A stretch of DNA of 64,000 nt. It comes from Microthrixaceae bacterium. Lineage in GTDB: Bacteria; Actinomycetota; Acidimicrobiia; Acidimicrobiales; Poriferisodalaceae. Positions 10,905 to 17,092 of the stretch are shown here, piece by piece. The stretch lies in assembly GCA_011523825.1 (NCBI GenBank), contig WTFX01000026.1, positions 96,834 to 160,833 of the forward strand, written 5' to 3'. Positions within the stretch are counted from its first letter, which is position 1. The number at the start of each line of letters is the position of its first letter. The translations under genes were made by a program, and so were the position numbers. The notes beneath the pieces are model-generated. The model worked only from the letters and a program-made list of their open reading frames with translations, ran no database searches and had not been told where the DNA came from.

Positions 10905-12118
10905 TGTGGGATTGGACTGACCCGATCTTCGACGGCCTCGCCGCCGTCTTGGCGTGGTTCTACTCGTTGCTGCCTGACTACACCTTCGCCATCGGCATGC
11001 TGACCTTGGCGATCATGCTGGTGTTCACGCCGCTCACCCTGCGGGGCGCGCGGTCGATGACGAAGATGCAGGCGCTGCAGCCGGAGATGACGGCGCTGCG
11101 CAAGCGGCATGGCGGCGATCGTCAGAAGCTCAACGAAGAAATGATGAAGCTGTACCAATCCCACGGGGTGAGCCCGCTGGGCGGGTGCTTGCCGAACTTG
11201 GTGCAGATTCCGATCTTCATCGTGCTCTACCGGGTCATCCTGAATCTGCGCGTCACTCCCGACAGCCCACAACCTGATTTCCCTCGCAATCTGAACCAGG
11301 ACTCGCAGCTCTACGCAGATCTTGTCGACGCCATCGGTTCCGATGGCTTCGGCGAGATGCGATCGCTGGGCATGGACCTCGCTCAGTCGGCGCGGGAAGT
11401 AGTCCAGGCCGACTTCGTCGAAGGGTTGCCGTACCTGGGGCTCATAGCGGTGACGTTCCTGCTGGCTTGGCTTCAGCAGCGCCAGATGGCGGCGCGGCGT
11501 GGCAATGCGGCCATGCCGAACCGCCAGATGGAAATCATGATGAAGTACCTGCCGTTCATGCTGCCGGTCTTCAGCTTCTTCGTGCCGGCAGCGCTGGTGC
11601 CCTACTTCATCGTGTCCAGCATTTACCGGATGCTGCAACAGGCGTTCATTCACGCGAGGATGAAGCCGCCTGCGCCGCTCGTCGGTGCCGATTCAGATGA
11701 CGATGTCATCGAGGCCGAGGCAGTCCCGGAACCAGAGCCGCCGCGTGAGGTGCCGAATCAGCGCTCGCGCAAGGCCCTTGACGCCGAGGCGGAGCGTCGG
11801 GCGGAGCGTGAGCGTCGCCGCGCAGAGCGACGCGAGAGTTCACAGAACTCATCGGGTGAGCGCGAACCAGCACCTGCGCAGCCGGAGCCTTCTGCATCTC
11901 CCACGATCCGCCGGACTCGCTCATCGGAAGAACGAGTTGTCGATGCACGCAAGCGAGCACGTCGCAGTGCTGGCTCCTCGAATCGGGATCAGGACCGGAA
12001 TCAGACTCGTGAGCGCGGCCGGCGGCGCGGCCGTGCCGAACCAGAGCCGGAATCGAAGCCCATCCAGAGTCGTCGTACCTCAGGAGACGGCAGGACCCGC
12101 AATCGCCGCAAGCGATGA
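10904..12118 (+). CDS. yidC: Membrane protein insertase YidC (with an Arg-rich C-terminal tail)
   Basis: Contains LTLRGARSMTKMQALQPEMTALRKRHGGDRQKLNEEMMKLYQSHGVSPLGGCLPNLVQIPIF.... The junction with yidD is TGATG. Confidence 0.93.
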   Translation: MWDWTDPIFDGLAAVLAWFYSLLPDYTFAIGMLTLAIMLVFTPLTLRGARSMTKMQALQPEMTALRKRHGGDRQKLNEEMMKLYQSHGVSPLGGCLPNLVQIPIFIVLYRVILNLRVTPDSPQPDFPRNLNQDSQLYADLVDAIGSDGFGEMRSLGMDLAQSAREVVQADFVEGLPYLGLIAVTFLLAWLQQRQMAARRGNAAMPNRQMEIMMKYLPFMLPVFSFFVPAALVPYFIVSSIYRMLQQAFIHARMKPPAPLVGADSDDDVIEAEAVPEPEPPREVPNQRSRKALDAEAERRAERERRRAERRESSQNSSGEREPAPAQPEPSASPTIRRTRSSEERVVDARKRARRSAGSSNRDQDRNQTRERGRRRGRAEPEPESKPIQSRRTSGDGRTRNRRKR

Positions 12119-12172
12119 ACGCACCGGCAACTGCTGCGGAGAGTTAGGCGCTGCGTCGTGGAGTGGATCGTG

Positions 12173-12493
12173 ATGACCGGCCACACCGTTGCGGAGGCGC
12201 GTGATCGTGGCCTCGATGCGCTCTCGGTCGCGGTCGAGGATGCGGATATCGAGATCCTGGCTGAGCCGGGCCGCTCGCACTGGGGGTTTCGACGCCAACC
12301 TGCTCGCGTTCGCATGCGGGTACGGCCGACTGGACCGCCGCCGCGAGTGGGCGACCAGCGCCGAGACCGCCGCAGATCCCGCCGCCGCTCAGCCGGCGGC
12401 AATCGCAACGCACACAGGCGGCAGGATTCCGGACAAGGCCAGCGCGGCGGCGGCAAATCCTCGCGCCGCCGTTCCCGTTCCGGCCGCCGATGA
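12173..12493 (+). CDS. Jag/KhpB N-terminal domain only (5' half of a split jag)
   Basis: Reads MTGHTVAEARDRGLDALSVAVEDADIEILAEPGRSHWGFRRQPARVRMRV, which follows the Jag_N pattern, then an Arg/Gly-rich linker, and stops at TGA 12491-12493. No KH or R3H domain is present in this ORF. Alternative GTG starts lie at 12158 and 12170. Confidence 0.7.
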   Translation: MTGHTVAEARDRGLDALSVAVEDADIEILAEPGRSHWGFRRQPARVRMRVRPTGPPPRVGDQRRDRRRSRRRSAGGNRNAHRRQDSGQGQRGGGKSSRRRSRSGRR

Positions 12494-12504
12494 TTGAGAA
12501 CTGC

Positions 12505-14547
12505 TCAGCTTGTCAACGGGTGCCGCTGCTTCGCGATCTTGAGCTTCAACCGCTTGTTGGGCGACATCGAAGGAAATGGGCTGATCTTCAGCTTGTAGTT
12601 CGACGGGGAGATCTCGAACGTGAAGTAGTGCGCGAGCATCAGCAGGCTCAACAGCATCTGGAGCTCCACCATGTGCGAACCAAGACAGCTATGCGTGCCG
12701 AGGCCAAAAGGTGCGTAGCCCGGTGTCCGGTGTTCACCGCGTGAGGGCAGATAGCGATCAATGTCGAAAGTAAACGGATCCGGAAAGACCTCGCTCATGT
12801 AATGCGGTGCAGTCGTGGCGATGAACACCTTGGAGCCGACTGGCAATTCGTAGTCTTCGATGACACATGCGTTCATCACCGTGCGGATCGACATGGGCAC
12901 CGTGGGCCACAGCCGCAAACACTCCATGATAAAACGTCGAGTGACGTCGATCGCGGGCGAGTTCAAGTCTTCTGACAGCGGATCTCCGTTGCCAAACAAA
13001 GCATCTGCTTCCGCCTGAATGCGTTCGTATAGATCCGGCTGAGACACCATCGCATGCAAGATAAAGCTGAGCTCATCTCCCGCGTACATACCCGCCAGTA
13101 CCGGTGCCGAGAAGGTAAAGCTGAGATTTGACTCGGGTACGAAAATTGGATCGCTGCTGTGCAAGCTGAGAACGTCATCGGCAAGATCGCGAGGGCAGCC
13201 AACCCTCTGCGCCGCTGTATGAGACTCCAAGACGCGATCATACAGAACGTCGACGACTTGCTTTTTTCGCTTCATGCGTGGCGTATAGAGCATGAAGTTC
13301 GGCAGGACATTGACGACTTGGGTCATGAGCACGCGGGACTTGTATGCGATGAGATCGTCGATGACGTCGTCTGCTTCAATGCTGGCGAGGAAGGGCGTGA
13401 CCTGAGCGCCAGCGAAGCCACGACACATGGATACAGCGCCCAAGGTGTCGCCGACGGTCCAATTGCTCATGTACGTTCGCGCATGCTGATACACGGTCTC
13501 AAGCTGCTGTTCGAATCGTGCTCGGCCATAGCCCGCACGCAGCGCTTTACGCATGCGGAAGTGATCTGCACCGTCCAGTGCAGGCAGCAGCCCGGAGGCG
13601 TGATACGCAGTCTCGAGACCTCGGAGATAGTCGCTTGACCTGAGGTGCATGCGGCCATGACGGTGAACCCAACGATTGACGCGAGGGCCTGCCAAGAAGG
13701 TAATTTCCCGTTTGGAAAACAGGGGCTTGAGCCTGAAGACAGGACCGAACTCTTCAGTCAATTGTGCATAGACGGCAGGGATGTTTCCCCGAAGGAAGTG
13801 GCGATTGAACAGCAGCTTGTTCAGCGGCAGCTTGGGTATCGACTTCGTCAGAGCGGAGCTTCTGAGCAGCGATGCCACCAAGTTGTGCGCGACGGCATCT
13901 GCGATGGCCCTGCCGATCAGATCCATCTGGCAGATGAGCTGGACTCGCTCCTCCGCTTCGTCGTCGAGCTCAAAGATGAAGCGCAGCACATCGCAGGTGT
14001 GGGCGAGGCCGATGATGATGACATCTCTCGGGCTGGGAATCTCGCCCAGCAAGATCGATCTGCCTATGCGCGTCTTGATGAACTGGACAGCCGTGTCGTC
14101 GTCATCGCCGGCAAAGAAATCGCTGTGCCGGGCCGCTGCCGTCAAGCTCCAGAAGTCGCCATCGTGATGCTCGAGGATCCCGAGTCTGACCAGTTGCTCC
14201 AAGGCCAAGTCGACCATCATCTCGGCGCGAGGCGCGAGGCGCTCCACCCAGTACTGCGCACCGTGCTGGTTGGGCTCGCTCGCGATCTGCTGGAGTGCGA
14301 GGTCCAGGATCGGCTTGCCGGTCGGCGTGGGGTCCAGCAGGATCAGCGACTCCATGTCGGTGTCAATTCGCGCCTGCAGCGAGAGCTCGGCCAACGCGGC
14401 ACCGGCCATGGCGCAATTCAGGTGCCAACCGGGCACCTGGTGGAAGTACCCGCTCTCTTCGCTGAGCAGCACCAGGATGAGCTCCTCGGTCAGGTCGAGC
14501 GGCTGCGCAGCGGTGACCTTCGTCGATGCTGTCGATGAAACAGTCAA
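12505..14547 (-). CDS. GOLPH3/GPP34-like N-terminal domain fused to cytochrome P450
   Basis: The N-terminal ~230 aa (LDLTEELILVLLSEESGYF...CAMAGAALAELSLQARID...PTGKPILDLALQQI...) fit the GPP34 pattern. The C-terminal domain has the ExxR motif (MECLRL), FDIDRY, and the heme-Cys loop FGLGTHSCLG. The only upstream start option is TTG at 14547. GC content is visibly lower than in the flanks. Confidence 0.8.
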   Translation of the reverse strand: MTVSSTASTKVTAAQPLDLTEELILVLLSEESGYFHQVPGWHLNCAMAGAALAELSLQARIDTDMESLILLDPTPTGKPILDLALQQIASEPNQHGAQYWVERLAPRAEMMVDLALEQLVRLGILEHHDGDFWSLTAAARHSDFFAGDDDDTAVQFIKTRIGRSILLGEIPSPRDVIIIGLAHTCDVLRFIFELDDEAEERVQLICQMDLIGRAIADAVAHNLVASLLRSSALTKSIPKLPLNKLLFNRHFLRGNIPAVYAQLTEEFGPVFRLKPLFSKREITFLAGPRVNRWVHRHGRMHLRSSDYLRGLETAYHASGLLPALDGADHFRMRKALRAGYGRARFEQQLETVYQHARTYMSNWTVGDTLGAVSMCRGFAGAQVTPFLASIEADDVIDDLIAYKSRVLMTQVVNVLPNFMLYTPRMKRKKQVVDVLYDRVLESHTAAQRVGCPRDLADDVLSLHSSDPIFVPESNLSFTFSAPVLAGMYAGDELSFILHAMVSQPDLYERIQAEADALFGNGDPLSEDLNSPAIDVTRRFIMECLRLWPTVPMSIRTVMNACVIEDYELPVGSKVFIATTAPHYMSEVFPDPFTFDIDRYLPSRGEHRTPGYAPFGLGTHSCLGSHMVELQMLLSLLMLAHYFTFEISPSNYKLKISPFPSMSPNKRLKLKIAKQRHPLTS

Positions 14548-14712
14548 GTGACGCTCCTGATCACGCGGGGCGCAGTGGTCGGCCCTGCGTTTGGGAAGAT
14601 CATCTCAAGTGTACGGACAGTTACTGGTACGGGGCGCAGCACCGGCGCTTCTCGAAGGCACCGATCATCCGGTCTAGCCTGCGGCATCGCTTCGGATAGA
14701 GAGCGCGTCTCG

Positions 14713-15765
14713 ATGGCCGCTAGACCCCCGCAGGAAGCAAACGTTAGTTCGCTTCCGCCATTTCCGGAAGGCTGGTTCTTCATCGCGACGCGCGACGCCG
14801 TACAGAAGGCGGGATTGATTCAACGGACGTGGATGGGCACCGAGATCATCGTCTGGTCTGATCCGGCCGGTCAGATCTGCATCGCGAAATCGGTATGCCC
14901 CCACTTGGGCTCCGATCTGGGACCTGAGGCCGGCGCGAAAGTCGTCGGCGGGAGACTCGTCTGCCCCTTTCACGGGTTCGAGTTCGAGACCAGCGGGCAG
15001 TGCGTGGCCACGCCATCTGGCGCGCCCGCCCGTTCCGCCAAGCTGGATCTCTTCGAAGCCCGTGAGATCGAAGGTCTGATCTTCGGCTGGTGGGGCCTCG
15101 GAGGACGATCCTCGCAGTGGCAGCTGCCCGATGTTCCGCAGACCGATGACGACTGGACCGATCTCCAGATCCGCACGATTCGCTTTGCTGGTCATCCGCA
15201 GGAGACCAGCGAGAACTCTGTGGACATTGCGCACCTGAGCTGTATCCACGGCTACCACAACGTCACCAACGATGCGCCGGTGTCAATCGACGGGCCGCGA
15301 CTCGAGAGCCGGTTCAGTTTCTCGACGACCCGGAGGATTGCCAAGGTCGCCAAGCTGACCTTGGATGTCTCAGCCATTGCCCACGTGGTGGGGCTGGGCT
15401 ACTCCTTTGTCCAGTTTCAGGAGCGTTCCATCGGCCTTGATGCTCGGCTGTGGGTGTTGGCGGCGCCGGTCGACGGCACGCTGATCGATATGTCCATCGT
15501 GTCGAGGATGCGCACGCTGCACAAGCCCAAGCGACCGGTCGTCGGCTTGAGCTTCCTGCCGACGCGGATGCGGGCGCCCATCGTGAACAAGTTCATTGCG
15601 GATCTGCAGATCGGTGAGGTCAAGCAGGATGTGGTGATCTGGAGTCGCAAGCACTACGTGCCACGCCCCCGGCTCGTGAGCACCGATGGCGAGATCATGA
15701 AGTACCGGGAGTACTGCGCACAGTTCTATTCCGGCGAGCGTGAGTGCGAGGCGCCCCGACGCTGA
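14713..15765 (+). CDS. Rieske [2Fe-2S] non-heme-iron oxygenase (KshA / cholesterol-7-desaturase-like alpha subunit)
   Basis: The Rieske ligands are CPHLGSDLG...CPFHGFEF. The mononuclear iron motif is ENSVDIAHLSCIH (D-x2-H-x4-H). The start is set at ATG 14713 (MAARPPQEANVSSLPPFPEGWFFIA); the track ORF from 14548 is over-extended. Confidence 0.8.
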   Translation: MAARPPQEANVSSLPPFPEGWFFIATRDAVQKAGLIQRTWMGTEIIVWSDPAGQICIAKSVCPHLGSDLGPEAGAKVVGGRLVCPFHGFEFETSGQCVATPSGAPARSAKLDLFEAREIEGLIFGWWGLGGRSSQWQLPDVPQTDDDWTDLQIRTIRFAGHPQETSENSVDIAHLSCIHGYHNVTNDAPVSIDGPRLESRFSFSTTRRIAKVAKLTLDVSAIAHVVGLGYSFVQFQERSIGLDARLWVLAAPVDGTLIDMSIVSRMRTLHKPKRPVVGLSFLPTRMRAPIVNKFIADLQIGEVKQDVVIWSRKHYVPRPRLVSTDGEIMKYREYCAQFYSGERECEAPRR

Positions 15766-15933
15766 ACTGCCCGGTCGCTCGCAGTGAGCGTCGCGAGTCT
15801 CAGGGGTTCCGCGCCGACGGACCCGTAGGCTGCGCACTGCCCACATCGCGCGAGCAGTCCAAGAGCAGCGTGCGCGGACTGACACCGCCCGATGTGCGGC
15901 GGGCCCCTACGCATGCGTGCCCGATCAGAGGTG

Positions 15934-16458
15934 ATGAAGATGACAGGTGAGACAACGACAGCCGAACAGCAAGTCATGGTGCAGGAGTTCTTGGACGGCT
16001 TGGTACAAGCGTTCGGTATCGAGGCAACAGCGGTGCCGGTCGCAGCAGATGACGACAGCTTCGAGATCAATCTCGAGGGTGAGAACGAGGCGCTGGGGCT
16101 GTTGATCGGACCGCGCGGCCGTCACGTGGTTGCGCTCCAGGAGGTCGCAAAGACCATGCTGCAGCGCAGGCTGCCGGGTGTGCGTCGTGCGCGAGTGAGA
16201 GTGGATGTGGGCGGCTACCGGCAGCGCCGTCGCGAGGCACTCGAAGCGTACGTTCGCGAGCTCGCCGATGCCGTAGTGGAACGCGGAACGGAACGTGGAC
16301 TTGAGCCGATGAACGCGGCTGATCGCAAGGTTGTGCATGACACGGTCAACGAGATCGCCGGTGTTGACACGATCTCGGTGGGCGATGAGCCGCGCCGGCG
16401 CGTTGTGCTGGTGCCGTCCGGCTCGACCGACGCTCCCAGCCAGAGCGACGAGGCGTAG
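15934..16458 (+). CDS. Jag/KhpB KH + R3H domains (3' half of a split jag)
   Basis: The KH GxxG motif is in LLIGPRGRHVVALQEV. The R3H motif is in MNAADRKVVHDTVNEIAGVDTISVGDEPRRRVVLVP. ATG 15934 or 15940 follows AGAGGTG. The frame is closed by TGA at 15880-15882 upstream. Confidence 0.75.
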   Translation: MKMTGETTTAEQQVMVQEFLDGLVQAFGIEATAVPVAADDDSFEINLEGENEALGLLIGPRGRHVVALQEVAKTMLQRRLPGVRRARVRVDVGGYRQRRREALEAYVRELADAVVERGTERGLEPMNAADRKVVHDTVNEIAGVDTISVGDEPRRRVVLVPSGSTDAPSQSDEA

Positions 16459-16471
16459 TCTCTCCGGCTGA

Positions 16472-17092
16472 TCAGAAAAGCGGTCGCTTCCGGATCTGTT
16501 TCCAGGTCCGGGGGTATGCCGGGTCGGCCGCCGTCAGACACTCCAGTTCCGCAAACGTCGGTGTGTCTGCGGTTCTCCGCACGAATCGCATCCCGAGCTG
16601 AGCGAGAGCATCACGTGGCCAGCGCGCCTCACCGCCTTTCGGCGGCTCGCTGACCACGAGCCTGCCGCCCGCGCGCAACAGGCCGGCACTGCACTCGGCG
16701 ACCGCAGCTGGGGGACCGAACGCCCGGCTGACGACGCCGTCATAGACAGAGCGATGCTGGGGCAGGTGAGCGAGTTCGGCGGCATCACCGAGGGCGATCG
16801 TGACACGATCAGCGAGCTGGAGGTCCTGAACAGCAGTGTTGAGAAAGTCGGTCCGTCGCTGTGACCGGTCCAGCAGCACCAACTCCATATCGGGCAGCTC
16901 CAGAGCCATCACGAGTCCGGGCACTCCCCCACCGCTCCCGAGATCGCACCAGCGCTGACCGGGCAGAGGTTGAGCGGCCGCGTGGTGGGCTCGTGCGTGC
17001 ACCACATGGGCCTGGAGGTCACCGGGGCCGAGAAGTCCTTGTTGTTGGCCGCGTCTGAGCACGGCAACAAGGCGTTCTTCTGCCACGGCCAT
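16472..17092 (-). CDS. rsmG: 16S rRNA (guanine527-N7)-methyltransferase RsmG/GidB
   Basis: Contains the SAM motif WCDLGSGGGVPGLVMAL...LLDRSQRRTDFL...VVSRAFGPP...GGRLVV. It is encoded on the strand opposite to jag and parAB. Confidence 0.85.
   Translation of the reverse strand: MAVAEERLVAVLRRGQQQGLLGPGDLQAHVVHARAHHAAAQPLPGQRWCDLGSGGGVPGLVMALELPDMELVLLDRSQRRTDFLNTAVQDLQLADRVTIALGDAAELAHLPQHRSVYDGVVSRAFGPPAAVAECSAGLLRAGGRLVVSEPPKGGEARWPRDALAQLGMRFVRRTADTPTFAELECLTAADPAYPRTWKQIRKRPLF

Follow-up and report, generated by a model that had tools for sequence, protein, structure and literature searches.

In a 64-kb stretch of DNA from contig WTFX01000026.1 (hereafter the window), the jag (khpB) gene exists as two separate genes. 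One, directly downstream of yidC, encodes the Jag_N domain and a disordered tail; the other, 3.4 kb further on, encodes the KH and R3H domains, and a GPP34-cytochrome P450 gene and a Rieske oxygenase gene lie between them. Comparison with 88 related loci indicates that jag was split first, that rsmG was then inverted, and that the two oxygenase genes (the cassette) entered the spacer between the two jag genes last. We consider this order probable, at roughly 0.8. The locus is a variant of a known system, neither categorically new nor insertion-driven. The window derives from a sponge-symbiotic acidimicrobial bacterium of the genus Candidatus (Ca.) Poriferisodalis, family Poriferisodalaceae (formerly TK06), and its KH-R3H protein is 84–98% identical to proteins of Ca. 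Poriferisodalis (sponge-associated Acidimicrobiia).

The 88 loci were classed by tblastn, tracing of open reading frames (ORFs) and a custom Jag_N hidden Markov model; L005, L008, L010, L027 and L051 (too short to cover Jag_N), L035 (cut Jag_N ORF) and L057 (doubtful frameshift) were left out of the classes. A fused gene, in which Jag_N, linker, KH and R3H form one ORF, is present in 32 loci from more distant Acidimicrobiia (Microthrixaceae, Iamiaceae, Ilumatobacteraceae and others). In 20 loci of marine relatives (KH-R3H 70–76% identical) jag is split, no oxygenase genes are present, and rsmG is on the plus strand; an insert-free split jag is further found in L053, L054, L055 and L083, for a total of 24 such loci. 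In 23 Poriferisodalis loci and in the window, the halves are separated by the P450/Rieske cassette of 3.3–3.85 kb. The exceptions within Poriferisodalis are L029, with an 835-nucleotide (nt) non-coding gap and no cassette, and L031, with the Rieske gene only.

The junctions between the two genes record where the cassette came in. In the marine clade (L006/L007 and L032–L050), the Jag_N ORF ends with RRTRKI(D/N)H followed by TAG and a spacer of 34–39 nt, and a conserved AGGAG stands six to seven bases ahead of the ATG of the KH-R3H gene. A motif related to the marine RRTRKI closes the Jag_N ORF in L054 and L055, and also in L004, L020 and L028, which are deep branches of Poriferisodalis. These three keep a full-length tail ending in RRRRL, followed by the cassette, which indicates that the cassette entered downstream of an existing stop codon. 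The C-terminal RTRKI tail end was lost in the crown group, including the 111-amino-acid (aa) version of the window.

The original prediction, made from the sequence of the window alone, held that the cassette had landed in the linker of a previously whole jag and so cut the gene in two. Within the window only the cassette parts the halves, the Jag_N ORF ends 11 nt from the stop codon of the P450 gene, and the Jag_N ORF has a shorter tail (111 aa, as against about 170–230 aa in insert-free relatives). The relatives contradict this explanation. A two-ORF jag with its own stop codon, Shine-Dalgarno (SD) element and ATG occurs in the 24 insert-free loci, and the sister lineages L054 and L055 are split without a cassette; across the yidC-to-rsmG interval, an uninterrupted jag was found only in more distant lineages and in L052. 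The full-length tail ahead of the cassette in the three deep branches places the insertion past a stop codon that was already there. A repeat search for insertion scars gave only short matches at chance level, with no target duplications or terminal repeats, and there is no transposase or integrase among the four ORFs of the locus. A split caused by the insertion is thus extremely unlikely.

The spacer of the insert-free relatives also bears on whether the two ORFs could be joined during translation. Programmed read-through or frameshifting, by which full-length Jag would still be made at least in insert-free relatives, finds some support in L006 and L046, where both ORFs are in the same frame with one stop codon between them, and in L033, where they are in frame with two. 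Among close relatives the spacer measures 34, 35, 36, 37 or 39 nt, so that the frame relation shifts while stop codon, AGGAG and ATG stay fixed; this favours two cistrons over programmed recoding. In the window such joining is ruled out by the 3.4 kb, including an antisense gene, between the halves, and for the relatives we give it almost no credence.

The relative timing of the events was read from neighbour-joining trees of yidC, KH-R3H, parA, parB and rsmG, and from a broader tree that included dnaA. Outside the clade all loci are fused save L083 and the doubtful L057. The split marine clade with L006 branches next, then L054 and L055 (split, rsmG inverted), and last Poriferisodalis, in which the cassette is present from the earliest branch and in nearly all others. 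The split is older than the insertion, because free-living relatives have both genes adjacent with nothing between them. Every Poriferisodalis locus, like L054 and L055, has rsmG on the minus strand, and all other loci have it on the plus strand; its inversion predates the cassette, because it is common to the cassette-free L054 and L055. Since L029 and L031 are nested within Poriferisodalis, their incomplete or missing cassettes are secondary losses. Relative to four Rieske genes sampled in other sponge-symbiont genomes, those at the jag locus are monophyletic, consistent with a single acquisition.

The course of events was probably as follows. In the ancestor common with the free-living marine relatives, a single jag/khpB gene would have broken inside its disordered linker or at the linker's end, through a stop codon or frameshift that gave a Jag_N-plus-linker gene and a KH-R3H gene with its own SD element and ATG. 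The inversion of rsmG would have followed in the ancestor of L054, L055 and Poriferisodalis. A two-gene module (GPP34-P450 plus KshA-like Rieske), one common to sponge symbionts of several phyla, would then have been inserted into the short inter-gene spacer in the Poriferisodalis ancestor, and the tail of the Jag_N protein would have been shortened afterwards in the crown group to which the window belongs. Today, the Jag_N gene would be the last gene of an rpmH-rnpA-yidD-yidC unit, the KH-R3H gene would be expressed from the conserved leader downstream of the Rieske gene, and the localisation/interaction module and the RNA-binding module of KhpB would act as separate polypeptides.

The fused genes may hold the reason why jag breaks at this point. 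In 31 of the 32 (which lie among L052, L056 and L058–L088; for example, L058 at about 5980–6003), an in-frame ATG or GTG with an SD-like element is found at the position homologous to the KH-R3H start. The element (AAGGAG, CAGGAAGG or similar) lies upstream at the usual distance, and the encoded peptide is (K/Q)E(G/Q)xxM. By the same criterion, an SD-like element precedes 7.9% of internal ATG/GTG codons in neighbouring genes; in the linkers, such an element lies ahead of 10.3% of codon positions, and 0.4% of codons are start codons. These motifs suggest that internal initiation of a KH-R3H product is already possible in the fused genes, and if it is, one nonsense or frameshift mutation in the repetitive linker would complete a fission. 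It is possible, rather than probable, that acidimicrobial jag is built for two products, full-length Jag and a free KH-R3H isoform. The start signal would in that case explain the repeated breakage (TK06 clade, L053 and L083) and perhaps a route to the KH-R3H-only KhpB group, and the freed spacer would be the landing site of the GPP34-P450/Rieske module in sponge symbionts. The RNA-binding half would then now stand directly downstream of the symbiosis module, apart from the localisation half. The conserved start signal points to a two-isoform model that can be tested, and to a simple path from three-domain to two-domain KhpB.

The same signal lends itself to the opposite polarity, in which this part of the Acidimicrobiia had two genes to begin with and later fusion produced the single-ORF forms; the internal SD element and ATG, kept in 31 of 32 fused genes, would be the relic of a gene boundary. 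The fused L052, nested in the split clade, makes loss of a stop codon or re-fusion seem possible. This polarity is nevertheless unlikely: the sampled loci outside the clade, which come from several families, are fused save L083 and the doubtful L057, and a fused Jag_N-KH-R3H protein is the common architecture in other phyla (PMC11261784, PMC5078927).

Several points weigh against the proposed order of events and against internal initiation. The neighbour-joining trees were built on four to five proteins taken from tblastn hits and are not proper phylogenomics. L052 is fused inside the split clade, whereas in its sister L053 a frameshift divides the gene, with a GTGA start/stop overlap. This calls for either several independent fissions or one re-fusion, so that jag has been split or rejoined more than once and one ancient fission for all split loci is not established. 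At the jag locus, the P450 genes do not form a monophyletic group, and the tree they give is discordant with the species tree. In L012 and L013, yidC is 84–87% identical but the P450 gene 62–67%, whereas in L016 and L017 yidC is 68–72% identical but the P450 gene 92–93%; furthermore, P450 sequences from other sponge-symbiont genomes, including a Nitrospira metagenome-assembled genome (MAG), nest among the jag-locus copies. This suggests that the P450 gene was replaced or recombined since the insertion while the Rieske gene stayed vertical, the cassette having been partly exchanged. The SD element and start codon of the fused genes could be a side-effect of the conserved (K/Q)-E-G-x-x-M peptide and no translation signal. 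Finally, L057 and L095 show that artefactual frameshifts can occur in the GC-rich, repetitive linker in long-read MAGs.

In both of these MAGs (L095, 63–2980; L057, 5520–6291), run-on or frameshifted ORFs extend through rnpA-yidC-jag and look like assembly errors, a warning not to infer a jag fission from one genome alone. One gene caller gave a YidC+Jag_N protein; this apparent fusion, in L095, was rejected, as the assembly is ridden with frameshifts.

Both halves of the split gene are intact and conserved across about 45 assemblies. Ratios of nonsynonymous to synonymous substitution rates (dN/dS) were calculated pairwise by the Nei-Gojobori method for 20 Poriferisodalis species (dS about 1). 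The values were 0.13 for the Jag_N domain (dS about 1.1) and 0.06 for KH-R3H, compared with 0.14 for yidC and 0.12 for parA; in the marine clade they were 0.15 for Jag_N and 0.03 for KH-R3H. Such low ratios indicate that both genes are maintained by selection and argue against decay of Jag_N, so that the view of the original prediction that this is a domain fission, not decay, holds. The two proteins probably have independent functions, and the retention of Jag_N as a selected gene of its own indicates that this domain has a function without covalent linkage to the RNA-binding part.

Jag proteins of Mycobacterium and Streptomyces consist of KH-R3H only. By analogy with such Actinobacteria with a Jag_N-less jag, the Jag_N ORF could be a dying remnant, with only the KH-R3H gene functional. 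The shortened crown-group tail and its missing C-terminal RTRKI motif would fit, as would the still shorter ORFs of L030 and L031 (86 and 75 residues, counted from the tblastn-aligned start, which excludes the five MEWIV codons) and the several gene callers that left the Jag_N ORF uncalled. We consider decay very unlikely, since the Jag_N dN/dS is at the level of yidC and parA and the ORF is intact at every locus that covers it, with the start codon and MEWIV conserved.

The features of the locus in the window are:

8077–9747, minus strand: dnaA
Between dnaA and yidC: rpmH, rnpA and yidD, in that order
10904–12118, plus strand: yidC, membrane insertase, upstream anchor of the conserved array (Pfam 60KD_IMP, 1.1e-45; NCBIfam YidC models)
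12158–12493, plus strand: Jag_N-only gene, GTG start, 111 aa, comprising the Jag_N domain (about 12158–12331) and a disordered Arg/Ser/Gly-rich tail (Pfam and NCBIfam profiles, AlphaFold2/Foldseek)
12505–14547, minus strand: GPP34-cytochrome P450 fusion gene (GPP34_L), 680 aa (PF05719, 4.3e-31; PF00067, 4.5e-39)
14548–14712, no strand: divergent intergenic region between the P450 and Rieske genes, with presumed promoters (gene calls in close relatives)
14713–15765, plus strand: KshA-like Rieske non-haem iron oxygenase, about 350 aa (PF00355, 9.4e-15; PF19298 (KshA_C), 3.2e-22)
15766–15939, plus strand: conserved non-coding leader of the KH-R3H gene (83% mean column identity, 8 species)
15940–16458, plus strand: KH+R3H-only jag/khpB gene, 172 aa, with GPRG and R-x3-H motifs (PF01424, PF13083, Jag_EloR)
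16472–17092, minus strand: rsmG, inverted relative to the canonical array (PF02527, 2.7e-22)
After rsmG: parA and parB

The Jag_N gene begins 40 nt past yidC and so keeps the position directly downstream of it. The KH-R3H gene is displaced 3.4 kb from the Jag_N gene, yet still lies ahead of rsmG and parAB. With an antisense gene between them, the jag halves of the window cannot be co-transcribed. Profile searches bore out the domain assignments made in the original prediction for the four ORFs, which are as it described them, with KH scoring just below its cut-off; the anchors of the canonical gene order that it named were also confirmed, but it had left unremarked that rsmG is on the minus strand. 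In the near-universal co-directional array jag-rsmG-parA-parB, rsmG alone is inverted here, convergent with the KH-R3H gene (13-nt gap) and divergent from parA. No second copy of Jag_N or KH-R3H was found within the 64-kb window. An Rfam scan of the whole window returned three tRNAs only, all far from the jag locus, and a promoter consensus scan gave 0 promoters, with 3 terminator-like sites against 2.8 expected.

The 111-aa ORF scores 36.6 bits against Pfam Jag_N (PF14804; cut-off 25) and matches positions 2–56 of the NCBIfam model Jag_EloR (NF041568) at 25.9 bits. In its AlphaFold2 model, residues 1–58 form a confident beta-alpha-beta-beta domain (predicted local distance difference test score 80–93) and the tail is disordered; the sole significant PDB match found with Foldseek is 3GKU, the Jag protein of Clostridium symbiosum (58 columns, root-mean-square deviation 1.2–2.3 Å). 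A Jag_N-only ORF with an Arg-rich tail had been predicted at 12173–12493. Its content was borne out, but the start was misplaced: the true start is the GTG at 12158, which gives the N-terminus MEWIV that is kept in all relatives, fused or split. The orthologues of this ORF are 98–123 aa long and 76–100% identical, and their NCBI annotation already reads 'Jag N-terminal domain-containing protein'.

The Jag_N tails of L032–L050 (for example, L041 at about 5800–5962) carry the conserved short motifs RKRT[IL], SNxRS and C-terminal RRTRKI[DN]H. Despite these three retained motifs, the disordered tail evolves fast in the marine clade (dN/dS 0.42). The tail of the window (12332–12490) is without all three. 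Conserved tail Thr residues with basic flanks recall the phosphorylated linker Thr89 of pneumococcal Jag, in which the linker bears a regulatory phosphothreonine (PMC5078927).

A HMMER search for stand-alone Jag_N among 1.84 billion representatives found that 98 of the 150 best Jag_N matches were without KH-R3H. Most of these 98 are contig-end fragments or frameshift or chimeric products, some of which stop inside the KH domain, and only 9 have the clade's C-terminal RTRKI motif. This survey therefore says nothing reliable on the spread of stand-alone Jag_N beyond the clade.

The 172-aa ORF scores 51.3 bits against R3H (PF01424; cut-off 26.8), and the R and H of its DRKVVHD are invariant in the alignment. 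Its score against KH_KhpA-B (PF13083) is 29.4 bits, just under the cut-off of 32.1; the GPRG (GXXG) motif is present and invariant in the alignment. The protein matches positions 57–201 of Jag_EloR at 112.4 bits (2.7e-32), in an alignment that spans the KH region. The two ORFs of the window therefore divide the Jag_EloR model at positions 56/57 without overlap, and neither attains its equivalog cut-off (25.9 and 112.4 versus 145 bits). The prediction of a separate KH+R3H ORF with its own SD-like element and ATG was correct except for its start, placed at 15934; the true start is the ATG at 15940, six nt past GAGGTG (SD element, 15928–15933), and the homologue P0001 is likewise 172 aa. Close homologues are all 162–172 aa long, orthologues are 75–98% identical, and longer homologues with Jag_N included, of about 290 aa, are found only at or below 58% identity. 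An exact look-up of the window's KH-R3H protein returned no identical record.

The leader ahead of this gene (15766–15939) is about as conserved as coding sequence over the eight species compared. It has invariant blocks, including GTAGGCTG, and an invariant TAGGCT that resembles a -10 element, and it is a putative promoter region. Its 3' part was kept in L029 although the cassette was lost. Folding of 15766–15945 gave z = 0.28, with no structure beyond that of shuffled controls. In L029, the gap between the jag genes (5166–6000) is AT-rich and retains the KH-R3H leader, and an insert of roughly 4 kb with a duplicated parA fragment lies between rsmG and parA (7273–11216).

In its position after yidC and before rsmG-parAB, its Jag_N, R3H and probable KH domains and its GXXG and R-x3-H motifs, the split gene resembles KhpB/Jag/EloR of other bacteria, and both ORFs together cover the whole family model; here, however, the domains are on two polypeptides from separate genes 3.4 kb apart. 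RNA binding, heterodimerisation with KhpA and Jag-domain-dependent localisation are known from Streptococcus pneumoniae, Clostridioides difficile and others (PMC13015501; 10.1101/2020.12.18.423453), and in pneumococcus the Jag domain by itself brings EloR to midcell, through MltG (10.1101/2020.12.18.423453). Two groups of KhpB are recognised, one with Jag-N and one that lacks it (PMC11261784). The 172-aa protein has the KH+R3H architecture of the second group, except that here Jag_N was not lost and persists as a separate selected gene beside yidC. The split jag may represent a transition between these two groups.

The split also follows the known mode of gene fission at disordered inter-domain linkers: the break lies in a low-complexity linker, whole domains are kept, and the two genes are adjacent in most genomes. 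It differs in that the start signal is seemingly older than the split, being visible in fused orthologues, and in that the gap later became the landing site of a symbiosis cassette. The original prediction had called the arrangement undescribed. That holds only in part: a literature search with Jag-N terms found no account of a jag gene split into two retained genes, but KhpB with and without Jag-N (PMC11261784), the NCBI Jag_N label and the GPP34-P450 fusion (PMC11706023) were already known. KhpB/Jag is emerging as a global RNA-binding protein in which the role of Jag_N is only partly known, and the family-wide presence of separate, selected Jag_N-linker and KH-R3H proteins amounts to a natural domain-separation experiment.

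The two divergent oxygenase genes predicted between the jag halves were identified by profile as GPP34+P450 (minus strand) and Rieske+KshA_C (plus strand). In the 680-aa fusion protein, PF05719 covers residues 19–221 and PF00067 residues 404–670. The P450 gene is convergent with the Jag_N gene, with 11 nt between the two stop codons, and has a dN/dS of 0.12 within Poriferisodalis. More than 120 clusters of homologues of about 675 aa share its architecture at roughly 60% identity, and those that are named come from Ca. Poriferisodalis, Acidimicrobiaceae MAGs or a Nitrospira MAG (SB0662_bin_26). The P450 gene is a member of the published sponge-symbiosis family GPP34_L. Such GPP34-P450 fusions have been reported from sponge symbionts alone, across many phyla (Ferreira et al. 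2025, PMC11706023), and GPP34 genes occur in 19 of 19 symbiotic and 0 of 55 free-living TK06/Poriferisodalaceae genomes (PMC11706023). The window's gene agrees with the family in two-domain architecture, length (about 675–680 aa), host clade and absence from free-living relatives. An identity as CYP51 was not established, CYP51 being just one of many weak PDB matches (about 1e-17), along with other eukaryote-type P450s.

The Rieske protein scores 54.7 bits with PF00355 and 80.1 bits with PF19298 (KshA_C). Its start is probably near 14713; gene calls in close relatives place it 167 nt from the P450 start. A sigma-70 consensus scan of the divergent region between the two genes found nothing. The best PDB matches of the protein are 3-ketosteroid 9alpha-hydroxylase (KshA; 1.4e-19), and its best NCBIfam match is SdmA, a bacterial sterol C-4 demethylase, at only 29 bits against an equivalog cut-off of 600. 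It shares with both enzymes the Rieske [2Fe-2S] and KshA_C catalytic domains, but its scores are far below the equivalog cut-offs and no reductase partner is seen in the cassette.

The lower GC content ascribed to both oxygenase genes in the original prediction applies to the P450 gene (0.584, with 0.558 in its 3' part, the lowest 1-kb value of a window at 0.665 ± 0.028) but not to the Rieske gene (0.624, similar to dnaA and yidC). GC content at third codon positions is ordinary in both genes and only that at first and second positions of the P450 gene is low, and GC content was rejected as a sign of recent foreign origin. The pair is an acquired, lineage-specific cassette all the same, as had been suspected: at the jag locus it is confined to Ca. 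Poriferisodalis genomes and is missing from about 24 relatives.

Five contexts of GPP34-P450 genes in other sponge-symbiont genomes were sampled. In four of the five, one of them in a Nitrospira MAG, a KshA-like Rieske gene, 51–59% identical to that of the window, is found 1–4 genes away. Sterol methyltransferase genes (Sterol_MT_C) are present in three (L089, L092 and L094), beside orthologous Rieske genes; L089 encodes in addition a squalene epoxidase-oxidosqualene cyclase (SE-OSC) fusion, and L094 a Patched/sterol-sensing MMPL transporter. None of these sterol-related genes, whether methyltransferase, cyclase or transporter, was found in the window. The main text of the GPP34_L paper does not refer to yidC, jag or sterols, and to Rieske only as a rare GPP34-Rieske fusion (PMC11706023); the insertion site in the jag spacer, the conserved Rieske partner and the sterol gene neighbours elsewhere are not mentioned there. 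The jag locus gives sponge symbiosis a dated, single insertion point of a GPP34_L marker gene. Together with its conserved Rieske partner among sterol-modifying genes elsewhere, GPP34_L might act on lipids or sterols, which would be an alternative to the phagosome evasion that has been proposed for it. A sterol- or lipid-modifying role of the cassette is, by this analogy, a lead and not a result.

Amine-oxidase-like genes were also found in the GPP34-P450/Rieske contexts (L089, 6001–14028; L092, 4768–11886; L094, 2195–10894; L091, 6001–9090). L093 (1–7025) has two GPP34-P450 genes, on opposite strands and 4 kb from each other, that flank an ABC/FtsX transporter pair, with no Rieske gene in view; this region adjoins CRISPR-Cas genes (Cas_GSU0053, Cas_GSU0054 and Cas3).

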